Under the pieces are notes generated by a model. It did no database searches, was not told the origin of the DNA, and saw nothing but the letters and a program-made list of their open reading frames with translations. DNA of 64,000 nucleotides from Chrysemys picta bellii (lineage: Eukaryota): the NCBI RefSeq assembly GCF_011386835.1, contig NC_088792.1, positions 81,096,001 through 81,160,000 of the forward strand. Reading direction: 5' to 3'. Below, one piece after another: positions 4,111-63,904 of this stretch. The translations under genes and the position numbers were made by a program. Within the stretch, counting starts at the first letter, position 1; every line of letters begins with the position of its first letter.

Positions 4111-5432
4111 TCTGTCTTTTTTTTTTTTTTTTTTTTTTTTGCACTGTTTCCCATGAACATTTGTTGTTATAGATTACTGTGACTTTTTTTTTGGAACTTT
4201 CACTTTTTCATTTGAGGTCATGATTGGGATAAATTTGTAGGCCCAGTTATTACAACACTTCCTACAGTCCTCCTACTGCTGCAGCTACTCCTCGCCCATG
4301 CCTGCCCTAGCCCCTACCCCCAATCCTAGCCATACTGAGCTCTTTCCTCTTCCCTCCATTTATGTTGCACTCAATAGAGAAAGCCGCACTTCTTGAAGGT
4401 GAGGAATCAGCTTCACAGTCTCCTGTAGTACCACTGGTAAGTAGAGAAAGGGAGAATAGAAAGCTTAACACCCTTTAACTGTATCCAAAACAAACCCCTC
4501 AGCCAGCAGCCAGATCCCCACCAATAGCTCCAAAACCTGCCCCCCACTCCATCCAGAACCAGTAACAACATGACCCATACACTTAGCACTCTCCACTATT
4601 CTTTGCTTCCCTTTTACAGCACCATTTATACCCCACAAGCAGCACCAGCAGCATCCAAAAGTCATGCATAGTTTCTTGCCAAGACCTCAATCCCACAATC
4701 CTTTATAGCCACAAAGGATTATGGGATTTGGCAAGAAGCTGCAGGTAGTTTTGGAGTTCTAGGTGGGGAAAAAGTTGAGAGCCTCTCTTCTAAATGAAGC
4801 AGAAGGCACATATAATTGTGACGGGATCGGTCACAGAGATCCCCTTCGGACTGTTACCTGATGTGCTGAAATTACCTCTGAGCCTGTTTTCCCTGCCAGC
4901 CTTGGACTCCAGAACCCTGCCTTGTTGAGCCAGACACTTTAGCCTGGTGCAACACAGACCGAGGGTCTTGGCCATGTCCCAAAGCTGCAGATTTTAACTA
5001 AAAACATCTTGGCAGGTTACCTGTCTCCAGCAACCAGACACCCAGCTCCCAATGGGATCCAAAACCCGAATAAATCCGATTTACTCTGTATAAAGCTTAT
5101 ACAGGGTAAATTCATAAATTGTTCGCCCTCTATATCACTCATAGATGTGCACAGCTGCTTGCTACCGTAAGTATTAATCACTTACTCTGGGTTTATTAAT
5201 AAACAAAAGTGATTTTATTAAGTGTAAAAAGTAGGGTTTACGTGGTTTCAAGTAATAACAGACAGAACAAAGTAAGTCACCAAGCAAAATAAAGCAAAAA
5301 CGCACAAGTCTAAGTCTAATACATTAAGAAACTGATTACTGGTAATATCTCACCCTCAGAGATGTTCCAATAAGCTTCTTTCACAGACTAGAATCCTTCC
5401 TAGTCTGGGCCCAATCCTTTCCTCTGGAACAG

Positions 5433-5911
5433 TGTGGGGTCCCAGGCGGAGCGGATAAAGCACACGACCAATGTGGTTGCAAGCTGAATCCGAATCCTGT
5501 TTATTGCAAGCTTTCTTTTATAGTTTTTCTCTACATTACATAACACAATTAGGCTATAATCACACATCTACGGATTGGACAAGAAGGAGAATCATGTGTT
5601 TATCACATGTATAGCCCCACACCGATTGGTTCAACAGTTCCTTACATAAGGCCATGATTTATTACCTTGTTTACCTCATCTTATATAATTCCTAGACCAC
5701 CAGGGGGCCTTACATAAGGCCATGATCATCTTATATAATCCTAGACCACCAGGGGGTCTTACATAAGGCCATGATCATCTTATATAATCCTAGACCACCA
5801 GGGGGCCTTACATAAGGCCATGATTTGTTTACCTGGCAAGTGTCCCATCGTGACCCTTACCTCCTCATGGAACTTTCCATTAGGTTGGTGTAGGGATGAT
5901 ACATCCCCACA
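5433..5911 (-). repeat. 3' LTR of provirus
   Basis: Preceded on the minus strand by PPT; TATAAAA 5516-5522, AATAAA 5500-5505, CCAAT 5574-5578 and 5625-5629; 49-bp U3 repeats starting 5709, 5758, 5807 plus a longer variant at 5641. Confidence 0.95.
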
Positions 5912-5928
5912 CCTCCCCCCTTTTTCTT
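5912..5928 (-). promoter_or_regulatory. Polypurine tract
   Basis: Minus strand AAGAAAAAGGGGGGAGG directly abutting the TGT start of the 3' LTR. Confidence 0.9.
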
Positions 5929-5937
5929 AAATAAGGC

Positions 5938-6342
5938 CTATAGGAGGGTCCAACTAACATTAGGACAATTACTAGCCACCTGACTACTTTTTTTGAACCT
6001 ATAAAACTGACGACAGGTGACATTTAACAACTGGGAAATATATGGAGAACTATTAAAAAACATAATATTACATAAATACCCACGAAAACCATTGGGGATC
6101 CGATGGGGTGGCCATGAACAAGCAAAAAGGGCTTTTTGGCCAGTTTGGTTTGCCCAGGTGACCCAAACATTTTGTTGTGGGTTAACAAAAGGTACAGAGT
6201 TTGGACATACAAAGACCCCTGCTCCTATAATAAGGAGTCCGAACAAACAGAAGCACAGCATTATCAGGTGTCTAGGTTGTAGCAAACAACAAGTGCAAGT
6301 CCGGTGCCGCGGGGTCGTCATTTGGCTTCTGCATGGTGGCAT
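5938..6342 (-). pseudogene. env: Degenerate, internally deleted env (signal peptide, SU N-terminus, probable TM anchor)
   Basis: Hydrophobic LIMLCFCLFGLLIIGAG, then PQQNVWVTWANQTGQKA and, after a frameshift, FCLFMATPSDP, resembling ALV gp85 [21 protein letters not shown] (from memory). Hydrophobic VFVGIYVILCFLIVLHIFPSC in another frame lies just before the PPT. Confidence 0.75.
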
Positions 6343-6567
6343 GGTGTTCGGGTAGCATGTGCCGGAGGGATCTTATCCGGTGGTTTTTTCCTATATGTCC
6401 TTTTAAAGTTAGATAAGCCTGGCTCCGCCATTCTTTTTAACCTATTCTGCAACTGCTCACCCTGCCCCGGGAACTCCGCCCGGAACTCTGGGGTACAAAC
6501 ATCATTGGTGACAGGAAAGCCGGGCTGGTTCAGGGCTCGCAATGTGTGGGACTGCGGGGGATGGCTC

Positions 6568-6759
6568 TTACCGGCCAAATGGGACAACTGATTCAGCATG
6601 TCCTGTAGCTGAAGGCCCTGTTTGTACATTCCCGCGTTTCTGCCCCCATTTCAACAAACGGGACAACGCGTCAGAGGGAAGCTTCTCTCCCCGCTTTTTA
6701 GCGATGCGTAATAAAAAATCATGCACCGTCTCCTCCTCTGCAGACAAAGCAGAGCCCAT
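6568..6759 (-). pseudogene. gag: Truncated gag, betaretrovirus-like matrix N-terminus (63 codons)
   Basis: MGSALSAEEETVHDFLLRIAKKRGEKLPSDALSRLLKW: myristoylation motif MGxxxS and basic helix typical of betaretroviral MA; good Kozak context; 22 nt downstream of the splice donor. Confidence 0.8.
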
Positions 6760-6775
6760 TTTATTAAATGCAGCC

Positions 6776-6784
6776 GCTCACCTG
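6776..6784 (-). promoter_or_regulatory. Probable major splice donor of provirus
   Basis: Minus strand CAG|GTGAGC with GT at 6781-6780, between leader repeats and gag ATG. Confidence 0.7.
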
Positions 6785-7205
6785 TGAGCTCACGAACGTC
6801 TCTCTCGGACGACCAGGAGCCGGTATCCTCCGGTACCTCCTGCCGCGGCTGCCACCTCCGCCTTTTCTCACCGAACGCTTCAGTCGGCTGTGAGCTCACG
6901 AACGTCTCTCTTGGACGACCAGGAGCCGGAATCCTCCGGTACCTCCTGCCTCGGCTGCCACCTCCGCCTTTTCTCACCGAACGCTTCAGTCGGCTGTGAG
7001 CTCATGAACGTCTCTCTCGGACGACCAGGAGCCGGTATCCTCCGGTACCTCCTGCCTCGGCTGCCACCTCCGCCTTTTCTCACCGAACGCTTCAGTCGGC
7101 TGTGAGCTCACGAACGTCTCTCTCGGACGGCCAGGAGCCGGTATCCTCCGGTACCTCCTGCCGGGGCTGCCACCTCCGCCTTTTCTCACCGAACGCTTCA
7201 GTCGG
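6782..7205 (-). repeat. Four tandem 106-bp copies of proviral leader
   Basis: Units start at 6782, 6888, 6994, 7100; only a few substitutions between copies; GTGAGCTCAC palindrome in three copies, GTGAGCTCAT in the third. Confidence 0.95.
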
Positions 7206-7226
7206 CTGCCTCGATGTCCAAGCCGA

Positions 7227-7244
7227 ATCACGTCGGGGTCACCA
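7227..7244 (-). promoter_or_regulatory. Primer binding site, tRNA-Trp(CCA)
   Basis: Minus strand TGGTGACCCCGACGTGAT, 2 nt from the LTR; complementary to the 3' 18 nt of vertebrate tRNA-Trp. Confidence 0.95.
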
Positions 7245-7246
7245 TT

Positions 7247-7725
7247 TGTGGGGTTCCATATGGAGCAGATAAAGCACACGACCAATGTGGTTGCAAGCTG
7301 AATCCGAATCCTGTTTATTGCAAGCTTTCTTTTATAGTTTTTCTCTACATTACATAACACAATTAGGCTATAATCACACATCTACGGATTGGACAAGAAG
7401 GAGAATCATGTGTTTATCACATGTATAGCCCCACACCAATTGGTTCAACCGTTCCTTACATAAGGCCATGATTTATTACCTTGTTTACCTCATCTTATAT
7501 AATTCCTAGACCACCAGGGGGCCTTACATAAGGCCATAATCATCTTATATAATCCTAGACCACCAGGGGGTCTTACATAAGGCCATGATCATCTTATATA
7601 ATCCTAGACCACCAGGGGGCCTTACATAAGGCCATGATTTGTTTACCTGGCAAGTGTCCCATCGTGACCCTTACCTCCTCATGGAACTTTCCATTAGGTT
7701 GGTGTAGGGATGATACATCCCCACA
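7247..7725 (-). repeat. 5' LTR of provirus
   Basis: 479 bp; TATA 7330-7336, AATAAA 7314-7319; followed on the minus strand by the PBS. Confidence 0.95.
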
Positions 7726-8789
7726 GAACAGTCCTTGTTAGTTCCAGCAGACATCTCAGGTGGTGATCAGGGGCTTTCCCATGACTGGCAGCCCTCTTTG
7801 TCCTGCTCCACCCTCTTTTATAGCTTTGGCACAGGGTGGGAATCATTTGTTTGTGCTTGTCCCCACCCCCGCCTCATCACTGGAAAAGTACAAGGATTAA
7901 GATGGATTCCAGTATCAAGTGACATGGTCATATGTCACTGTAAGACTCCTAGTCTCCATTCTTCCTGGGTTGCCCCCCACCCACACACACAGAAAAGCAT
8001 GCAGGTAAATAAACCATTTACAACCAATTGTCCTAGTCAATGGGAGCCATCAAGATTCTAAACCACCATTAATGGCCCACCCTTTGCATAGTTACAATAG
8101 GACCTCAAAGTTATACTTCATATTTCTAGCTTCAGATACAAGAATGATACATGCATACAAATAGGAAGAACATATTCAGTAAGTTATAACCTTTGTTATG
8201 ATACCTTACAAGAGATCTTTTGCATAAAGCATATTCCAGTTACATCATATTCACACTCATAAGCATATTTCCATAAAACATACAGAGTGCAACATCACAA
8301 TAATATTTAGCAAGAACTCAGGAGTAGAATGGTGTGAATAAATATTTTTTTTTGGCTAGATGGCAGTTCCAAAAAATTTAAAAAAATAATTTTGGGTCAA
8401 ACAAAATGTTTTGTTTGATCTGAAATGAGAAGTTTGGTTTTGACTTAAAACTGGTTTTAAGATTTTTAATTGCATTTTTTATAAATAATATCAAAGGAAA
8501 TCAAATCAAATCAAAGTTGTTTCAAATCAAAACATTTCATTTAAAAACGTTGAAACAAAATGTTTCATTTTAGGGGGGATTTTTTTGTTTTGGTTTGTTT
8601 TTTGTCCGAAACAATTTAAATTTGACATGAATTTGCAAAATGTTTCAGTCAAACTAAATCTGCATTTCCTCTCTTACCCCGCAAAAAAAGTTCTGATAGA
8701 AAAATTTCACCCCATTCATGTCAGGAGACAAGAATGTCAGGAGGGAAGGCCCAGCACTTTGATTAGCTGCATGAGCACTACATTACAGT

Positions 8790-9164: not shown

Positions 9165-10245
9165 TAAGAACATAAGACTGGGCATGCTGGGTCAGACCAA
9201 AGGTCCATCCAGCCCAGTATCCTGTCTACCGACAGTGACCAATGCCAGGTGTCTCAGAGGTAGTGAACCTAAAAAGTAATGATCAAGTGATCTCTCTCCT
9301 GCCATCCATCTCCACCCTCTGACAAACAGAGGCGAGGGACACCATTCCTTACCCATCCTGGCTAATAGCCATTAATGGAATTAACCTCCATGAATTTATC
9401 TAGTTCTCTTTTAAACCCTGTTAAATTCCTAGCCTTACAACCTCAGGCAAGGAGTTCCATAGCTTAACTGTACGTTGTATGAAGAAGAACTTCCTTTTAT
9501 TTGTTTTAAACCTGCTGCCCATTAATTTCTTTTGGTGGCCCCTAGTTCTTATATTATGGGAACAAGTAAATAACTTTTCCTTATTCACTTTCTCTACACC
9601 ACTCATGATTTTATATACCTCTCTCAAATCCCCCCTTAGTCTCCTCTTTTCCAAGCTGAAAAGTCCTAGCCTCTTTAATCTCTTCTCATATGGGACCCAT
9701 TCCAAACCCCAAATCATTTTAGTTGCCCTTCTCTGAACCTTTTCTAATGCCAGTATATCTTTTTTGAGATGAGGAGACCACATCTGTATGCAGCATTCAA
9801 GATGTGGGCGTACCATGGATTTATATAAGGGCAATAAGATATTCTCCGTCTTATTCTCCATCCCTTTTTTAATGATTCCTAACATTGTTTGCTTTTTTGA
9901 CTGCTGCTGCACACTGCGTGGACGTCTTCAAAGAACTATCCACAATGACTCCAAGATCTCTTTCCTGATTAGTTGTAATTAAATTAGACCCCATCATATT
10001 GTATGTATAGTTGGGGTTATTTTTTCCAATGTGCATTGCTATACGTTTTTTCCAATGTGCATTGCTATACACATTAAATTTCATTTGCCATTTTGTTGCA
10101 CAATCTCTTAGTTTTGTGAGATCTTTTTGAAGTTCTTCACAGTCTGCTTTGGTCTTAACTATCTTGAGCAGTTTAGTATAATCTACAAACTTTGCCACCT
10201 CACTGTTTACCCCTTTCTCCAAGTCATTTATGAATAAGTTGAAAT
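9165..10245 (-). mobile_element. CR1 LINE, 5'-truncated
   Basis: ORF2 C-terminus LPLYKSMVRPHLE..WSPHLKKDILALEKVQRRATKMI and LQKDLTKL..KWQMKFNV; CR1 3' tail near 9165. Confidence 0.95.
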
Positions 10246-10249
10246 ATAC

Positions 10250-11170
10250 CCATGCAAATCATTATTTCTACCACTGTTGTATAATTGCAACAAATGCAAC
10301 ACATGGCCAGAAAGGGTTGAACAGTTTGCAGGCCAACTAACTCAAAGCCAACCGTTAGAGGCATGTTAGAAAGTATGCGGATGGTAATTAGGGCCATTCG
10401 ATGTTAGATTGGCTAGAACTTTGAAATGCAAACATGTATTTGTTAGAGAATTAGAAGTGATACTAATTGCATGTATCTTAGGTGCTAGCCATGTAAACAG
10501 ACAGTTTCTATCTGTCGCTATAACTATTAATTCAGAGATCAAAAGGGAATATTAACATTTAGATGACTCTTGGGTGAAATAATGGCATTGTCTATATGTC
10601 AGTTTGTGATAGACTGCCTAATTGATAAATTGCCCTATGTTAATTTGTGTAACTAATTACTGGTGGGGTTTAGGAAACAGAAGGTTACATCAAAAGCCTA
10701 TTGTTTACCCAGGACTGCATGGTCAAGTGAATGCTAGAAAACTGCATAAAAGACCGTTGGGTCCCAATCCTTTTTATCCCAGATCTGCTTAAGCTTCATC
10801 AGGGGAAGTTTGAGTCACAAAATTGAGATCCCAGTTCTGACTGGACCATCCTGAAATATAAACATTGGACTATAACCTATGGACTATTTCTGAAAGAACT
10901 GTTTGCAACTACAAAGCTCACCATCTCTGCTATGAATCTGATCTCAGAAACTGTACTCATGTCTGTATGTATATTGATCTTTTAACCATATTCTCTCTCT
11001 TTTGATTTTAAATAATTTTTAATTTAGTTAATCAGAATTGGCTGTAAGCATGTATTTTGGTAAGATCTGGAATATTCATTAACCTGGGAGATAATGTGTC
11101 TGATCCTTTGGGATTGGTAGAACATTTTTTTATATGATGAAATAAGATTTTCATTAATCCTCATCATATC
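10250..11170. repeat. Probable LTR-derived repeat fragment
   Basis: Resembles an abundant turtle LTR-type repeat from memory; termini and TSD not established. Confidence 0.3.
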
Positions 11171-11890: not shown

Positions 11891-12448
11891 GCAATAAGAA
11901 TACGAAAGCCGACATTATTTTGCTGGTCGACAGCTCTGAGAGTATCCGCCCTGTTGATTTTCAGAAGATGAAGGATTTCATGCAGCTGATTGTGAACAGG
12001 TCTGATATTGGGGCTGATAAAGTTCAGATTGGGTTGTTGCAGTTCAGTTCAGAGCCCCAAGAGGAGTTCCAGCTCAACCGATACGGCAGCAAGGCTGACC
12101 TAAGGAGAGCCATTTCGGGGATCAGGCAGATTAAATCCGGAACGATGACCGGGAAAGCCCTAACTTTTGCCTCCTCTTACTTTGATGGACCCAAAGGAGG
12201 GCGACCCAGAGTAAAACAGTATCTCATAGTGATCACAGATGGGGAGGCCCAAGGTATTGTGAGAGAGCCTGCTGAGACCATTAGGAACAAAGGTATCACC
12301 ATCTATGCAATTGGTGTTCTCTATGCAAACAACTCCCAACTTGTGGACATTGCCGGCAGTCAAGACAAAGTGTTCTTCGAGGATAACTTTGATTCCCTTA
12401 CCTTTCTGGAAAAGGAGATTCTCTTTGAAATTTGCAATCCGGGGGATT
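11891..12448 (+). CDS. COL6A4: Collagen VI alpha-4-like exon, VWA domain (phase 1-1, 558 nt)
   Basis: ag/gt borders; ADIILLVDSSESI (intact MIDAS) ..QIGLLQFSSEPQEEFQLN..GGRPRVKQYLIVITDG. Confidence 0.9.
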
Positions 12449-12903
12449 GTAAGTGATAGTAGTAACCTGTTGGGTCTTTCTAATTCTTCTTTATTTTGTT
12501 GTGTTTACTATTAATCCTTTATAAGGTTTGATTCCTCCCCACCCACATATTTCTAGTAGAGATCTTCAGCTTTTCTTCCATTGTGATATTAAGGAACGAT
12601 AGTAAAGTGAAATGCAATAGCAGAAAATAAGATCACTCTCTTTACAGACCAGAATCTCATGCTTTTCCTCAGGAGCCGTATTTTATTTCCTTTCAGGCAG
12701 GTGTATATTTTTCTTTTGGACAAAAAGAAATGCCCACAGCCCTCCTTTTTTGTTTTTCTTTGTATCTTGCTTTTCGGAATGTCCCTGCACTTTCTGGTTT
12801 CAGTTAGCAGTTGGATCGAAAGAACTACTCTGGGAGGGAGCAAGGAGGAGAGAGACCTGATCATAACATTACAGCTTTGTTTCCTTTGTTTTGTTAACAA
12901 CAG

Positions 12904-13481
12904 CATGCAAAAGGACTGAAGTTGCAGACATCATATTTGTGGTGCATGGATCAAGAAGCATCACAGACTTGCAGTTCCAGGGCATTCAGAGGATCCTGGA
13001 GGCTGTGGTGAATGACTCAGTGGTTGGAAAAGACAATGTTCAGTTTGGGGCTGTGGTCTATAGCACTAATCCTCAGGATCATTTCTCACTGAATATGTAC
13101 TCGGCTAAATCGCAGGTCAGAGAAGCAATCTCTAACTTGACAACTATGCCAGGGCTAACCTTCACAGCAAGGGCTTTGAACTTTGCCAGGGAGAGATTTG
13201 GTATGGCTTATGGTGGTCGTACATCATCTCTTAGTGTCACCCGGATTCTTGTGCTTATTACTGATCAGCCAACTTCACCCTCGGATAGACCCAACCTTCC
13301 AGCAGCAGCAAAATCTTTGAAGCAAGATGGTATCAATGTCTTTGCTGTTGGAGTGGATGAAGCCAGTAGAACAGAGCTTGAAGAAATTGTGGGAGAGTGA
13401 GAGAGATTGTGCAGAGCTATAATGAACTGCAAAGCTTACACGAAAACCTCACTCATACAGTATGTGATGAGGCAAAGCCAG
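12904..13481 (+). pseudogene. COL6A4: Disrupted VWA exon of COL6A4-like gene (578 nt; TGA at 13398-13400 plus frameshift)
   Basis: cag/gtaag borders; CKRTEVADIIFVVHGS..ELEEIVGE* and the domain end VQSYNELQSLHENLTHTVCDEAKP resumes in a shifted frame from 13409. Confidence 0.85.
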
Positions 13482-14834: not shown

Positions 14835-15557
14835 CAGGGGTGTGCAAACTACGGCCCGCTGGCCAGAACCGGCCCATCAGGGCTTTGGATCCGGCCAACA
14901 AGATTGCCAGCCCCGTGGCGCCATGGCTAAGGCAGGGTCCCTGCCTGACCTGGCTCCACGCCGCTCCCAGAAGCGGCCAGCATCACGTCCCTGCGGCCCC
15001 TGGGGCGGGAGGAGGCAGAGGGCTCCATGCGCTGTCATCGTCTGCAGGCACCGCCCCCCGCAGCTCCCATTGGCTGGGAACGGGGAACCACAGCCAATGA
15101 GAGCTTCAGGGGAGGTACCCACAGGTGAGGGCAGCACGCGAAGCCCTGCCCCTTTCCTCCAGGGACGTGGTGCCAGACGCTTCTGGGAGTGGTGCTTCCA
15201 GGAGCAGCGCATCCGGGACGCTGCCTTAACACCGCTGTGCGCCACTGCCACCCCAGAGCCACTCAAGGTAAGTGGCGTTGGACCGGAGCCTGCACCCCGA
15301 ACCCCTCCTGCACCCTGAACCCCAACCCCCTGCCTTGTACCCCTCCTGCACCCAAACCCCCTGCCCTGAACCCCCTCTTGCACCCTGCACCCCTCCTGCA
15401 CCCCAACCCCCTGCCCTGAGCCCCCTCCCACACCTCCTCCCACACACCACACTCCCTCCCACACCCGAACCCCCTGCCCCAGTCCTATATTCATGCCCCT
15501 GCATGCAATTTCCCCACCCAGATGTGGCCCTCGGGCCAAAAATTTTGCCCACCCCTG
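14835..15557. mobile_element. Non-autonomous hAT transposon (MITE, 723 bp)
   Basis: TIRs caggggtgtgcaaa / tttgcccacccctg; perfect 8-bp TSD GGCTAAAG at 14827-14834 and 15558-15565. Confidence 0.9.
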
Positions 15558-15801: not shown

Positions 15802-16087
15802 GGGCAGGTCTACACTAACCCCCCAATTCGAACTAAGGTACGCAACTTCAGCTACGTGAATAACGTAGCTGAAGTTCGAAGTACCTTAGTTCGAACTTAC
15901 CTCGGTCCAGACGCGGCAGGCAGGCTCCCCCGTCGACTTCGCGGTACTCCTCTCGCCGAGCTGGAGTACCGCAGTCGACGGCGAGCACTTCCGGGTTCGA
16001 CTTATCTCGTCCAGACAAGACGCGATAAGTCGAACCCAGAAATTCGATTTGCTTGCCGCCGAACTACCGGGTAGTGTAGACCTACCC
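15802..16087. mobile_element. PIF/Harbinger MITE (286 bp, CpG-rich)
   Basis: TIRs gggcaggtctacacta / tagtgtagacctaccc; 3-bp TSD TTA; nested internal hairpins. Confidence 0.9.
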
Positions 16088-20449: not shown

Positions 20450-20799
20450 ATTGCAACATAGATGTTTCTGTAGGAATTGATATTTCGAGGCGCATGAAGT
20501 TTATATCTGCACTGAACGAGAAGCAGAAACTGCAAAAGTACCTGCCCAAACTTCTGCACCGAATGGAGTCCTTGACTAAAATCAGTTGTACTGTTGAGTC
20601 TCAAATCAACACCAGGTTCAAGTACCAAGTGTTTACACAGAACGGCCAGTCCTTGTTTGACTCCGATTTTGAAGCCTATGACGAAGAGATCCTCCAGAAA
20701 TTCTTAGTTGTTCAGACCATTGTAGACACCTATCTGAATGCAGACTTCTTACAGTCATTTTGGGAGAAATCCCTCAGACTGGCCTCTGCTAAAGTGAAG
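20450..20799 (+). CDS. COL6A4: COL6A4-like exon, last N-terminal VWA domain part 1
   Basis: CNIDVSVGIDIS..FDSDFEAYDEEILQKFLV..ADFLQSF..SAKVK; from memory closest to mouse alpha-4(VI); phase 1-0. Confidence 0.9.
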
Positions 20800-23242
20800 G
20801 TAAATAAAACGGAATAAATTATATTGTTTCAAAGTATATTAAGTCTAGTGCTGGTGAACATTGCATGGGAAATAAAGACTTCATGAATGTTCTTGTAGAT
20901 AAATCCTTGGATTCATTTTGACAGCATTCATGGCCCCTTGCTGCAAACAATTGTGTAAGTGAATTTTTGTTCCTGGAATTCAAATACTTGGGCAAATCCA
21001 TATGCTCACAAGTATTTACATGGGAAATTTTCACATGTCCATCTTGGAAGCAGTTAGTAGGTTAAGGAGCAGAACAGTATTCTGTAATAGATGGCTAATC
21101 ACACAACCCGAGTAGTAATGACTCAAAGCAAACATCATCGCAAATGTTTCATGGCAGAAACATATTCACAGAAATCACTCATTAAATAATTTCAAATAAC
21201 AAATGAGTAAAGTCGAGGTCTGTCCGTGGATAATTTACGAACAGAGAAAAGTGGCTATATTTGTAGACTAACATGTCCACTGCAAATAGTTCATCCAGGT
21301 TGAAATGAGACCAAGAGAAAGCAAAGATCTAAAGGGCTGATCCAATCCCTATTGAAGTCAAAGGGAACCTTTCCATTGACTTGAATAGAAATTAGACACC
21401 TCTTAGGATTTCAGATTCAGTGCCTTTTATGTTTTTTTCTGATAAAAAACCAGTTCTGGAAAGACTTTTTACATACTAAGGCACTGATTCAGAAAAACAT
21501 CCCTCTAAGATATAAACTGTATCTTCCAGAGAGAGCTTATTTTAATTCTTACAAAGTATTGGTAGTTTAGAATGGTCTTAATTTAGAGTGCTCACTGAAA
21601 AGTGTATTCTCACTTCCATTCTGAGGAGCAGACACAAATCCCCTTGCTGGCAGGTAAGAATATAAACTCCATATTCAGCATTTGTAGAATTCTTTCTTCT
21701 CAACATAGGTACATGGAGTGGTGCATATCTAATGTTTTTTTTTCTTTTCTTTTTCTGTTAAAATCTGTAAAGTGCAGGTCTTCTCTGAATGATGACTATA
21801 AAATGGCATCATGAGGGCCCACTTGTAATGCATCTCAATGATTTCTGAACAAATTTGCTCAGTTTACATATAAAAATGTTATTTTTCTAACTGCCAACTC
21901 TACTAATGCAATGTGGAATCTGAGAGTTGAGATGAGTTCTTCCCTCCTAATGCATCATCACTAGTAACAAAGATTCTGCAGATCTAATGCTGCTCTTAGC
22001 TACATCTGTACAATTCCACTGCCATCACCATTCTAGGAATTGGAAGGTAGCTCAAACTTCATACCCATTTAATTCTTGGCCACACTGCTGAGATAGCCTG
22101 TTATTACCCTTTGTTCTGGCACTTGTGTGCGTGATGTAAACATCTGACTAGTTACTTAGAACAGGACTGAGATCATGAATTCATTTTTCATAGGTCACTG
22201 AACAGCAACACATTTTTGCTCATCAGTTGGATGAGACACAAAGATTCTGGTTCTTTGTGGTTTGCCGTTCATCTGTTGTTGGTTGTTATGTTTGAGTATG
22301 GAATGCTGAACCCAATCTTGAAGCCATTAACTGAACAAGACTCGGATTTATTCCAATCAAAAACTGATCCCACCATGCTTAGAGTGGGAACAGAAAGGTA
22401 CTTTCCAACACTTCGTGATCGATTATTTGCACAGCAGAGGCTCAATTTGCCACTGCATCTGAGCTCCACTAGGGCAGATGGGGGGACCTAATCTAACTTA
22501 TGCCACTGGAGACTTTATACCACTGGAGGATGGGGTAGTGAAGCTTTGCTTCACCATACCCCCTGTCTTGGTGTCAACATGCCCCCTCTCTCCTCCTACC
22601 CTGGGGCTGTGGAGTGGCTGGCACAGGAGCTGACTTAGCCGCATATGCCAGCCTTACACCAGTGGAGAGTTCCCGTGTGCTAGGGGAATTCTCTGCTGTC
22701 CACCTATGGCTGAATCAAGCATCAAGTGGGCAGAATGGACCAGGGAACCCAGCCCAGCATTGTTATGTTGTTAGTCTGACAGTTCCAGTCCTGGACTGCC
22801 ATCATCCAAAGGAAAAACACTGCTTGCTCTAAATTCTCTCAGTTACACCAGGGTCAATCTGGAGAACTCCACTGACTTCAGTGAAAGTCCTTCAACTTGT
22901 AAACAAGAATAGAATTGGCCCCTAGCCCAGCACACCTGGGTACTTAGCTGAACTGGTTGTACTAATAAAAGTTGCAGTCTACAAGGTAAATCCTTCCAAA
23001 TGGAGCCACTGTCAAACTAGAGATATTTTGGGGCTTAATTACCACGACTCTGTCCTTTTAAAGCTACATTGTCACCAATTTTCAATACTAAATTGTAATT
23101 TTTAAGTTAACCTGGAATATAAACTCATCAAGGATTGCACAGCACTTTGAGAACTACCAGGGAAAGCGGTGGGTGGTATTATTATGGTTGTTTTTTCATA
23201 TTTTCTGCAGACCACCTTGGTAATTCAGTGTTTTGTTCATAG

Positions 23243-31587: not shown

Positions 31588-31876
31588 GTATGTGTTCTTT
31601 CTCTAGTTTCTTCCAGCAAAACCGCTCTTGGTTATACACAGTCCTGTCATCTTTACTTCATGAGGTAGGATGAAAGTATGAAAGCTAGCTAAAGACCAAG
31701 GCAAAGGGTATCAAAAATTGAGTTTAAAAACATTGTGTGGATATATAATGTATGCTGGGTTGGGAACTGCTCCTAGACTATTAAGAGACAATGGACATGT
31801 GATTCATTTGAACTGAACGACTGCAGAAATTTGACCTAAATTGCTCACAGTGAAAAAGTCAGCACTAGTTACCAAT

Positions 31877-32091
31877 AAAAAGCAACAAAGAGTCCTGTGG
31901 CACCTTATAGACTAACAGAGGTATTGGAATATAAGCTTTCGTGGGTGAATACCCACTTCGTCAGACGCATGTGATGAAGTGGGTATTCACCCATGAAAGC
32001 TTAAGCTCCAGTACGTCTGTTAGTCCATAAGGTGCCACAGGACTCTTTGTTGCTTTTTACAGATCCAGACTAACATGGCTACCCCTCTGAT
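31877..32091. mobile_element. Penelope-like insertion made of two inverted terminal segments
   Basis: Inverted arms about 31877-31965 and 31972-32058; 13-bp TSD ACTAGTTACCAAT at 31864-31876 and 32092-32104. Confidence 0.9.
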
Positions 32092-57329: not shown

Positions 57330-58109
57330 AAATATTTTAATAAGTATAAAAAGTAGGATTTGAGTGGTTTAAAGTAATAACAGACAGAACAAAGTAAGTT
57401 ACCAAGCAAAATAAAAGAAAACATGCAAGTTTAAGTCTAATACATTAAAGAAACTGAATACAGGTAAATCTCACCCTCAGAGATGTTCCAATAAGCGTCT
57501 TTCACAGACTAGACTCCTTCTTAGTCTGGGCCAAATCCTTTTCCCTGGTACAGTTCTTATTAGTTCCAGCTCAGGTAGTACCTAGTGGATTTCTCATGAC
57601 TGACAGCCCCCTTTGTTCTGTTCCTCCCCCTTTTATAGCTTTGGCACACGGCAGGAATCTTTTGTCTCTCTGGGTCCCCACCCCTCCTTCTAAATGGAAA
57701 AGCACCAGGTTTAAGATGGATTCCAGTACCAGGTGACATGGTCACATGTCCTGTGAGACCTTAAGCCTCCATTCTTTCCAGCCTGGCTTACAGGGACACA
57801 GGAAGGCTTACAAGTAAACAGAGCCATTTACAACCAATTGTTCTAGTTAATGGGAGCCATCAAGATCCTAAGCCACCATTAATGGCCCACACGTTGCATA
57901 ATTACAATAGGACCTCAGAGTAATATTTCATATTTTTTGTTTTAGATACAAGAATGATACATTCATACAAAGAGGATGAACACATTCAGTAGATTATAAG
58001 CTTTGTAATGATACCTTACAAGAGGCCTTTTGCATAAAGCATATTCCAGTTACATCCTATTCATACTCATAAGCATATTTCCATAAAACATATGAAGTGC
58101 AACATCACA
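57330..58109. mobile_element. Partial solo LTR, same family as 4817-8299
   Basis: Long colinear similarity (aagtaataacagacagaacaaagtaag.., gtgcaacatcaca end). Confidence 0.85.
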
Positions 58110-58743: not shown

Positions 58744-59076
58744 CAGTGTTTCTCAAACTGCAGTCACCGCTCGTGTAGGGAAAGTCCCTGGTGGGCCAGG
58801 CCAGTTTGTTTACCTGCTGCATCTGCAGGTCCGGCCGATCTCAGCTCCCACTGGCCGCAGTTCGCCGCTGTAGGCCAATGGGAGCTGCTGGAAGCAGCAG
58901 CCAATATGTCCCTCGGCCTGCGCCGCTTCCAGCAGCCCCCATTGGCCTGGAGCAGCGAACCACGGCCAGTGGGAGCTGCCATCGGCCGGACCTGCCGACA
59001 CAGCAGGTAAACAAACCGGCCCGGCCCACCAGGGGCTTTTCCTACACAAGCGGCGACCCCAGTTTGAGAAACACTG
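58744..59076. mobile_element. hAT-type MITE (333 bp), near-palindromic
   Basis: 17-bp TIR cagtgtttctcaaactg / cagtttgagaaacactg; flanking duplication TCCTATG (7 bp visible). Confidence 0.88.
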
Positions 59077-62793: not shown

Positions 62794-63904
62794 CATAGAA
62801 TCATAGAAATATAGGGCTGGAAGGGACCTCAAGAAGTCATCCAGTCCAGTCTGCTGTGCTGCAGCAGGACCAAGTAAACCTAGAGCATCCCTGACCAGCT
62901 TGTCCAGTTTGTTTTTAAAAGCTTCCAATGATGGAAGGAAATATTAATGAGAGCCCGTTAAGGGACAGCTTGTGCTTTCAAGCCAGTACAGCTATGATCT
63001 ATGACCTCACTTGGAAGCTATTCCAGAGCTTAACTACTCTTATAGGTTGAAAGTTTTTCCTAATATCTAACCTAAATCTCCCTTGCTGCAGATTGAGCCC
63101 GTTACTTGTCCTACCTTCACTGGCCATGGATAACAATTGATCACTGTCCTCTTTGTAACAGCCCTTACCATATTGGAAGGCTGTTCTCAGGTCCCCCCTC
63201 AGTCTTCTTTTCTCAAGACTAAACATGCCCAGTTTTTTAAACTTTTCCTCATAGGGCAGGTTTTCTAAGCTTTTTATCATTTTTGTTGCTCTTCTCTGGA
63301 CTCTTTCCAATTTGTCCACATCTTTCTAAGATAAATTGTGGCACCCAGAATTGGACACAGTACTCCAGCTGGGGCCTCAGCAGTGCCAAATAGAGCGGGA
63401 CAATTACCTCCTGTGTCTTACATACAACACTCCTGTTAATACACTCCAGAATCATATGAGTCTTTTTTTGCAGCTGTATCACATTGACGACACATTCAGT
63501 CTGTAGTCCACTATAACCCCCAGGTTCCTCTTCAGCAGTACTACCACCTAGATAATTATTCCCCATTTTGTAGTTGTGCATTTGATTTTTCCCCCTAACT
63601 GTAGTACTTTGCACTTGTCTTTATTGAATTTCATCTTGTTGATTTCATATCAATTCTCCAATTTGTCAAGGTCATTTTGAATTTTAAAGCTGCCCTCCAA
63701 AGTGCTTGCAACCCCTCCCAGCCTGGTATCATATACAAATTTTATAAGCATACACTCTACTCCATTATCCAAGTCATTAATGAAAATATTAAATAGCTCT
63801 GGACTGACCCTTGCAGGATGCCTAGATATGTCCTCCCAATGTGACAGCAAATCATTGATAACTATTCTTCAACCAGTTGTGCACCCACCTTATAGTAATT
63901 TCAT
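62794..63904 (-). mobile_element. CR1 LINE, 5'-truncated
   Basis: LFNIFINDLD..LIKFVYDTRLGG, LYLALLRPQLEYCVQFW, LERVQRRATKMI; tail (catagaat)n at 62794. Confidence 0.95.

Follow-up and report, generated by a model that had tools for sequence, protein, structure and literature searches.

Birds harbour a continuum of endogenous retroviruses (ERVs) that runs from betaretrovirus-like to alpharetrovirus-like forms (PMC3482500). Two groups characterized in Table S1 of that study are the closest described kinds to the element reported here: Avibeta1e, which has a primer-binding site (PBS) of the K or W type, -1/-1 frameshifts, a dUTPase and envelope genes that include the alpha type, and Alphabeta, which has a W or K PBS, the same -1/-1 layout and an alpha env but no dUTPase, the layout of alpharetroviruses being 0/-1. 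A study which states that alpharetrovirus polymerases are known only from birds has described alpha-like envs from turtles, Gopherus and Mauremys among them (PMC13568524). Beta-related ERVs are on record in Testudines (PMC6001957), and an A/B group has been defined in work that also gives bird-to-turtle transfers in its groups 14 and 25 (PMC12287698). We analysed a window of 64,000 nucleotides of Chrysemys picta bellii (contig NC_088792.1, positions 81,096,001 to 81,160,000) that carries a truncated provirus at positions 5433-7725, which a first-pass annotation had described as alpharetrovirus-like. We consider it likely that this provirus is a non-autonomous class II ERV of a turtle lineage which belongs to the avian-type group related to both alpha- and betaretroviruses, is not a true alpharetrovirus, and was derived from a complete parent and mobilised in the manner proposed below. 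Its family would be a turtle member, probably not yet described, of an avian-type class II group that is already known; no description of it was found in open-access papers, which is weak evidence of absence.

The provirus lies on the minus strand and spans 2,293 bp, 1,335 bp of which are interior, between two long terminal repeats (LTRs) of 479 bp that end in TG...CA and differ from each other at 8 positions (Table 1). An older repeat, which we take to be LTR-like, has been split by the provirus, and its two parts form the flanks (4818-5432 and 7732-8299). A second and unsplit copy of this repeat (57334-58109, 82-89% identity) holds the target site only once, and the 6-bp repeat seen at first pass is consequently a true target-site duplication (TSD) and the insertion real. 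A TSD of this length is that of class II ERVs (ERV2; PMC4299795, Table 1). The window contains the 18-nt PBS a single time, against a chance expectation of about 2e-6 copies. It sits 2 nt inward of the 5' LTR end and is, as proposed, the tRNA-Trp PBS listed for avian leukosis virus (ALV) and EAV-HP (PMC4635179, Table 2; PMC5029493, figure legend). This PBS is shared with alpharetroviruses without being exclusive to them (PMC3482500), and it is not the tRNA-Lys type that marks mammalian betaretroviruses. The LTR termini (TGTGGGG...CCCCACA) do agree, in a comparison by eye, with the attachment (att) consensus of the betaretroviral HML groups (PMC3601003). The TATA box noted at first pass is present in the 5' LTR as TATAAAA (7336), followed 10 nt later by AATAAA (7319); the label of ALV-type LTR is not retained, given these HML-like ends and a short R region common to mouse mammary tumor virus (MMTV, 11 bp) and Rous sarcoma virus (RSV, 21 bp) (PMC3601003). 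The LTRs, att ends, PBS, leader and polypurine tract are intact, while capsid (CA), nucleocapsid, protease (PR), reverse transcriptase (RT), RNase H, nearly all of integrase (IN) and most of Env are gone. The provirus has no capacity to encode CA, PR, RT, IN or Env, and no functional coding was detected at the locus.

The host lineage is indicated by what remains of gag. The predicted Gag begins with MGSALS at 6759, as first read, and its matrix start is 74-79% identical to the ERV Gags P0004-P0006 of Gopherus tortoises (74% for P0004). Of three matches that a search of 1.84 billion representative sequences returned at E<=0.001, one was credible; a matrix profile built from it and the window piece retrieved 8 proteins out of 497 candidates, and each of the 8 comes from Gopherus or Mauremys. 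These sequence matches point indirectly to a turtle lineage and form the main support for it. The CR1-like, Penelope-like and MITE repeats of the window may likewise be of turtle types, and an ESM Atlas search with a LINE-like fragment narrowed the host no further than Chordata. In translation, the leader is also similar to what precedes Gag in P0004; its CpG observed/expected ratio is 1.06 against 0.23 for the whole window, and the 106-bp unit of which it is made shows no unusual folding (z about 0.55). Pfam gave no match to the window gag pieces and no relevant match to P0001, searches of PDB sequences with window fragments gave no relevant match, and the ESM Atlas returned nothing relevant for the matrix piece (best 0.79). 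One PDB match to a window fragment, a cytochrome c555 trimer, was rejected as a repeat artefact.

The matrix had been called beta-type at first pass. Its MGxxxS motif, from which we predict myristoylation, is indeed at odds with the non-myristoylated Gag of alpharetroviruses, as stated for ALV at first pass and documented for RSV; as a betaretroviral mark it fails, most retroviral Gags being myristoylated (PMC4010771). The betaretroviral matrix family Gag_p10 (PF02337), by which mammalian betaretroviruses are recognized, gave no match at E<=1 in the window fragment or in P0004-P0007, although it does match Suricata and Podarcis proteins. With Gag_p10 silent and a modelled fold that leans to RSV (see below), the matrix is beta-type in its Gly2 motif alone. 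Two side observations concern this part of the family. The 31-residue insert in the second gag remnant (6372-6488) weakly echoes the preceding helix, P0005 residues 183-233 being matched a second time there (E 0.001), and is perhaps an old internal duplication. Five Mauremys mutica gene models annotated as 'golgin subfamily A member 3-like' (P0007-P0011) begin with about 80 residues of the matrix of this family, and P0007 additionally holds an integrase-like scrap; these are either annotation chimeras or host sequence captured inside ERVs.

As a stand-in for the parent we used the Gopherus evgoodei protein XP_030414231.1 (P0004), which matches the window in matrix, leader, post-matrix piece and probably the pol tail. 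The tail match, to the P0004 C-terminus, is weak and in the expected position (31 of 2,000 shuffles score equally). P0004 contains Gag_p24, RVT_thumb and IN_DBD_C domains, and the Gag_p24, RVT_thumb and two zinc knuckles expected of class II elements are present in P0004 together with the G. agassizii Gag P0005, these domains being lost at the provirus. P0005 ends past the two zinc knuckles with no protease (RVP) domain, so that the Gag-frame protease of alpharetroviruses is lacking in this single gene model. No dUTPase was found in P0004-P0006, though the P0004 model seems to skip that region. A search with the P0004 RT retrieved 178 proteins; among the 120 matches listed there are 82 named bird ERVs, 20 named mammal or lizard ERVs, 17 unnamed sequences and the query, and no named ALV, EAV or LPDV. 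A plasmid collection searched for ALV-type Pol gave no match. A maximum-likelihood RT tree drawn from the 103 named sequences, of which it uses 44, groups the Gopherus sequence with the beta-like bird ERVs of Manacus and Falco with support of 99/97; left out were the 17 unnamed and 59 named sequences, mostly extra Hirundo and Scotinomys copies. The Manacus sister carries a dUTPase; outside turtles, it also yields the top match to the turtle matrix profile (E 3.8e-10).

As a proxy, which measures similarity and not phylogeny, we used the bit scores of integrases against solved structures. The tortoise P0004 integrase scores 213 bits against MMTV and 161 against RSV, compared to 230 and 169 for a Vidua ERV and 252 and 165 for a Passer ERV; its nearest structure is not that of RSV, and its RSV score is no higher than those of the songbird elements. 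We take 3jca and 7usf to be MMTV and 7jn3, 5ejk and 4fw2 to be RSV, the tool itself naming only 1c0m as RSV. With this MMTV-leaning integrase and a relative's Gag devoid of protease, the alpharetrovirus-like backbone of the first-pass annotation is not sustained. The provirus thus departs from alpharetroviruses in three testable features, namely the myristoylation motif of its Gag and, judged on relatives, the frame of the protease and the affinity of the integrase.

In env, positions 6171-6130 encode the motif NVWVTWANQTGQKA in frame, as the N-terminus was first read, whereas the FCL that had been joined to it follows in another frame; env is thus frameshifted there. The same motif opens the gp85-positive envs of songbird beta-like polyproteins. 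Against a profile of four such bird-ERV envs, the window frame ranks first of 2,821 open reading frame pieces (E 0.0026), and with an X inserted for the break its score is 18.2 bits, a value reached by none of 993 scored shuffles; the test is partly circular because the pattern used to pick the profile members was itself derived from the query. Pfam, Avian_gp85 included, gave no match to the window fragment, so that neither of the two families proposed for a profile search responded. The silence of Avian_gp85 says little, since in four bird envs its match covers only profile positions 181-242. None of 27 candidates was accepted as a homologue of the 144-aa env frame. The transmembrane subunit (TM) is absent, and a membrane anchor considered at 5929-6068 is not supported, its similarity to TM tails lacking significance (37 to 330 of 500 shuffles do as well for each of five env-bearing proteins). 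Based on its sequence, the remnant is predicted to be the hydrophobic signal peptide and the start of the surface subunit (SU) of an avian gamma-type (alpha-like) Env.

Although several large pieces of the interior are deleted, the two LTRs are nearly identical, with a Kimura two-parameter distance of 1.7%. Five of the eight differences fall within the last 21 bp of U5 (5441-5453 and 7255-7267; p about 5e-6 for a stretch chosen post hoc), and only 3 occur in the other 458 bases. A cluster of this kind suggests strand transfer or gene conversion involving two variants of the family, and an age taken simply from LTR divergence would be too high. Because the LTRs differ at merely 3 of 458 bases beyond the cluster, the insertion is young and reflects recent germ-line activity.

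The parent virus, as we propose it, was primed by tRNA-Trp, had gag, pro and pol in a beta-type layout and carried an env of the avian gamma type (alpha-like). The deletions and the leader repeats would be products of template switching while the genome was being reverse-transcribed; proteins of a complete family member, acting as helper provirus, would then have packaged, reverse-transcribed and integrated the shortened RNA. The lineage may have come to turtles from birds, or from a reptile and bird pool common to both.

Several points weigh against this proposal. What is said of pol was read from a relative whose matrix is 74% identical, not from the provirus, and recombination could part the two. 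The RT tree was built from hand-picked gene models, is midpoint-rooted and includes no alpharetrovirus. The capsid of the tortoise relative scores near-evenly against HERV-K (64.9 bits), RSV (60.8) and Mason-Pfizer monkey virus (M-PMV, 55.1). An AlphaFold2 model of the tortoise relative P0006 (matrix pLDDT about 90) superimposes on RSV matrix with Z 12.6 (1.8 Å over 91 residues), a better fit than to M-PMV (Z 8.2) or MMTV (Z 7.9). Finally, mobilisation in trans is proposed from one copy of the provirus, the only one in the window.

The single copy would also suit a full provirus that lost its interior after integration, in which case there would be no non-autonomous family and the classification would be the same. 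The clustered LTR differences also show that some recombination or conversion took place at the locus. Near-identical LTRs and an intact TSD nonetheless leave little time for at least three separate deletions and a fourfold amplification of the leader, and we regard such erosion as unlikely, if worth keeping in mind.

More consequential would be a parent that is sister or basal to alpharetroviruses and Alphabeta (EAV), that is, a non-avian branch of the ALV stem with a myristoylated Gag and beta-type frameshifts. The PBS identical to that of ALV and EAV, the alpha-like start of env and the near-even capsid scores all suit this placement, as does the matrix fold, for which a modelled sparrow ERV used as control does not lean alike (RSV 9.8 and 8.8, MMTV 9.1). 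Were ALV to occupy a long branch, the similarity to RSV integrase could moreover be greater than the scores suggest. The comparison of matrix folds involves a small helical domain and one control, the sparrow protein having replaced P0134, which has no matrix, and the two models differ in alignment and length; the fold tool itself cautions that a Z below about 13 between helical bundles may reflect a mere common arrangement. The capsid fold gives HERV-K Z 19.3 and RSV Z 18.1, and Foldseek on the whole Gag model returned capsids only among the matches listed. Against an alpharetroviral stem position are the tortoise integrase, which is no nearer to RSV than those of two songbird ERVs, the dUTPase of the RT sister, which both Alphabeta and alpharetroviruses lack, and the HML-like LTR ends. 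A W PBS is also found in Avibeta1e, and relationships are poorly predicted by the type of PBS (PMC8922424). It is doubtful that the turtle family is a recently active lineage whose gag-pol would be the first from outside birds on the alpharetrovirus stem, and the placement as a whole appears improbable to us. In that version of events, the lineage could already have possessed an RSV-type matrix, Trp priming and an alpha-type Env with Gag still myristoylated and the protease in a separate frame; if it is true, the order in which ALV acquired its traits would be fixed and the stem extended beyond birds.

A recombinant of an alpha-leaning gag (RSV-like matrix, Trp PBS) with an avibeta pol, which would have no single position in a tree, might explain why matrix and integrase lean in different directions and why the tortoise capsid is only about 31% identical to its best named bird relatives when the integrase reaches 50-54%, but Gag normally diverges faster than Pol. 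Cross-clade recombinants are common among avian ERVs (PMC3482500), yet we find one very hard to credit here, as Manacus is both the RT sister and the best non-turtle matrix match, which suggests that gag and pol travelled together.

Table 1. Positions of the proviral features within the 64,000-nt window.
Feature	Position	Strand	Remarks
TSD, left copy, 6 bp	5427..5432		identical to 7726-7731; single site in the intact repeat copy near 57550
3' LTR, 479 bp	5433..5911	-	three 49-bp U3 repeats at 5676-5824; TATA at 5522; AATAAA at 5505
Polypurine tract	5912..5928	-	directly adjoins the 3' LTR
Remainder between env fragment and polypurine tract	5929..6068	-	one frame hydrophobic
Env remnant, predicted signal peptide and SU start	6069..6270	-	frameshifted near 6130; truncated
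Probable pol end (integrase tail), last codons and stop	6272..6319	-	7/12 identities to the P0004 C-terminus
Gag remnant 2	6339..6629	-	in a changed frame after the deletion; region between matrix and CA, corresponding to P0006 residues 174-237 plus a 31-residue insert; tblastn E 2e-19
Gag remnant 1	6631..6759	-	matrix codons 1-43 with MGxxxS motif; stops at the deletion
Leader	6782..7208	-	four tandem 106-bp units, 96% alike; CpG-rich
PBS, tRNA-Trp	7228..7245	-	identical to ALV/EAV-HP
5' LTR, 479 bp	7247..7725	-	U3 repeats at 7490-7638; TATA at 7336; AATAAA at 7319; HML-like ends
TSD, right copy, 6 bp	7726..7731		same letters as 5427-5432

Other features of the window were also recorded. Exons of a collagen VI alpha-chain gene lie on the plus strand (11905-13397, 20450-20800 and 25640-56650) and comprise two von Willebrand factor A (VWA) exons and many Gly-X-Y exons, with COL6A3 as the top PDB match. 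The provirus is in the opposite orientation and upstream of the first visible exon at 11.9 kb, and is probably intronic if earlier VWA exons precede the window. Fragments on the minus strand at 9421-10258, 63249-63620 and 1353-1721 resemble ORF2 of a CR1 long interspersed element (two places) and a Penelope-type endonuclease; these names are our presumption, Pfam having given no support for the two pieces scanned. Self-inverted repeats at 14928-15228, 15827-15895, 31876-32059 and 58744-59076 are probably remnants of miniature inverted-repeat or other DNA transposons. Rfam and ARAGORN each returned no match in the window.

A young turtle family that unites a Trp PBS, an alpha-like env and a class II backbone provides a data point on the exchange of alpha- and beta-type viruses between birds and reptiles. 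Even if its placement is the ordinary one favoured here, an RSV-like matrix fold together with a myristoylation motif makes it a useful intermediate for timing the loss of the myristate in ALV.

Compared with known systems, the provirus resembles ALV and RSV in its PBS, the short spacing from TATA to AATAAA, the 6-bp TSD, the env N-terminal motif and the modelled matrix fold of its relative, and differs from them in its Gly2 myristoylation motif and HML-like LTR ends as well as, on relatives, a protease outside Gag and an integrase nearer to MMTV. The reptilian elements with alpha-like env have a gammaretroviral pol where RT was examined (PMC13568524), while the backbone of the provirus is class II; its env fragment is too short to be placed among theirs. 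The Gopherus models XP_030414231.1, XP_030437834.1 and A0A452GGM3 share with it the matrix start (74-79%), the leader, the post-matrix region and probably the pol tail, and differ in having kept CA (RT and IN too in XP_030414231.1); they are automatic annotations and not a described family. Alphabeta (EAV-0/EAV-51) is alike in its W PBS, identical to that of EAV, in its alpha env and, for the tortoise relatives, probably in a -1/-1 layout; no dUTPase was seen in those relatives, of which the P0004 model seems to skip the region. Alphabeta differs, on a comparison by description, in its hosts, which are chicken and turkey only in Table S1 of PMC3482500, and a tortoise integrase no more RSV-like than those of songbird ERVs sets it further apart. 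Avibeta1e, likewise compared by description, is given from zebra finch, chicken and turkey (PMC3482500) and not from turtles, and its dUTPase is matched in the nearest RT neighbour of the tortoise relative. The novelty first attributed to the combination of traits is forestalled by these groups, which already pair a W PBS and beta-type frameshifts with an alpha env (PMC3482500), and by the earlier report of alpha-like env in turtles (PMC13568524). Both allow a W or K PBS, two zinc fingers and an alpha-type env, in keeping with the provirus and its relatives, and Avibeta1e shares with the provirus and its relatives the W PBS, two zinc fingers, a protease outside the Gag frame and an env of the alpha type.

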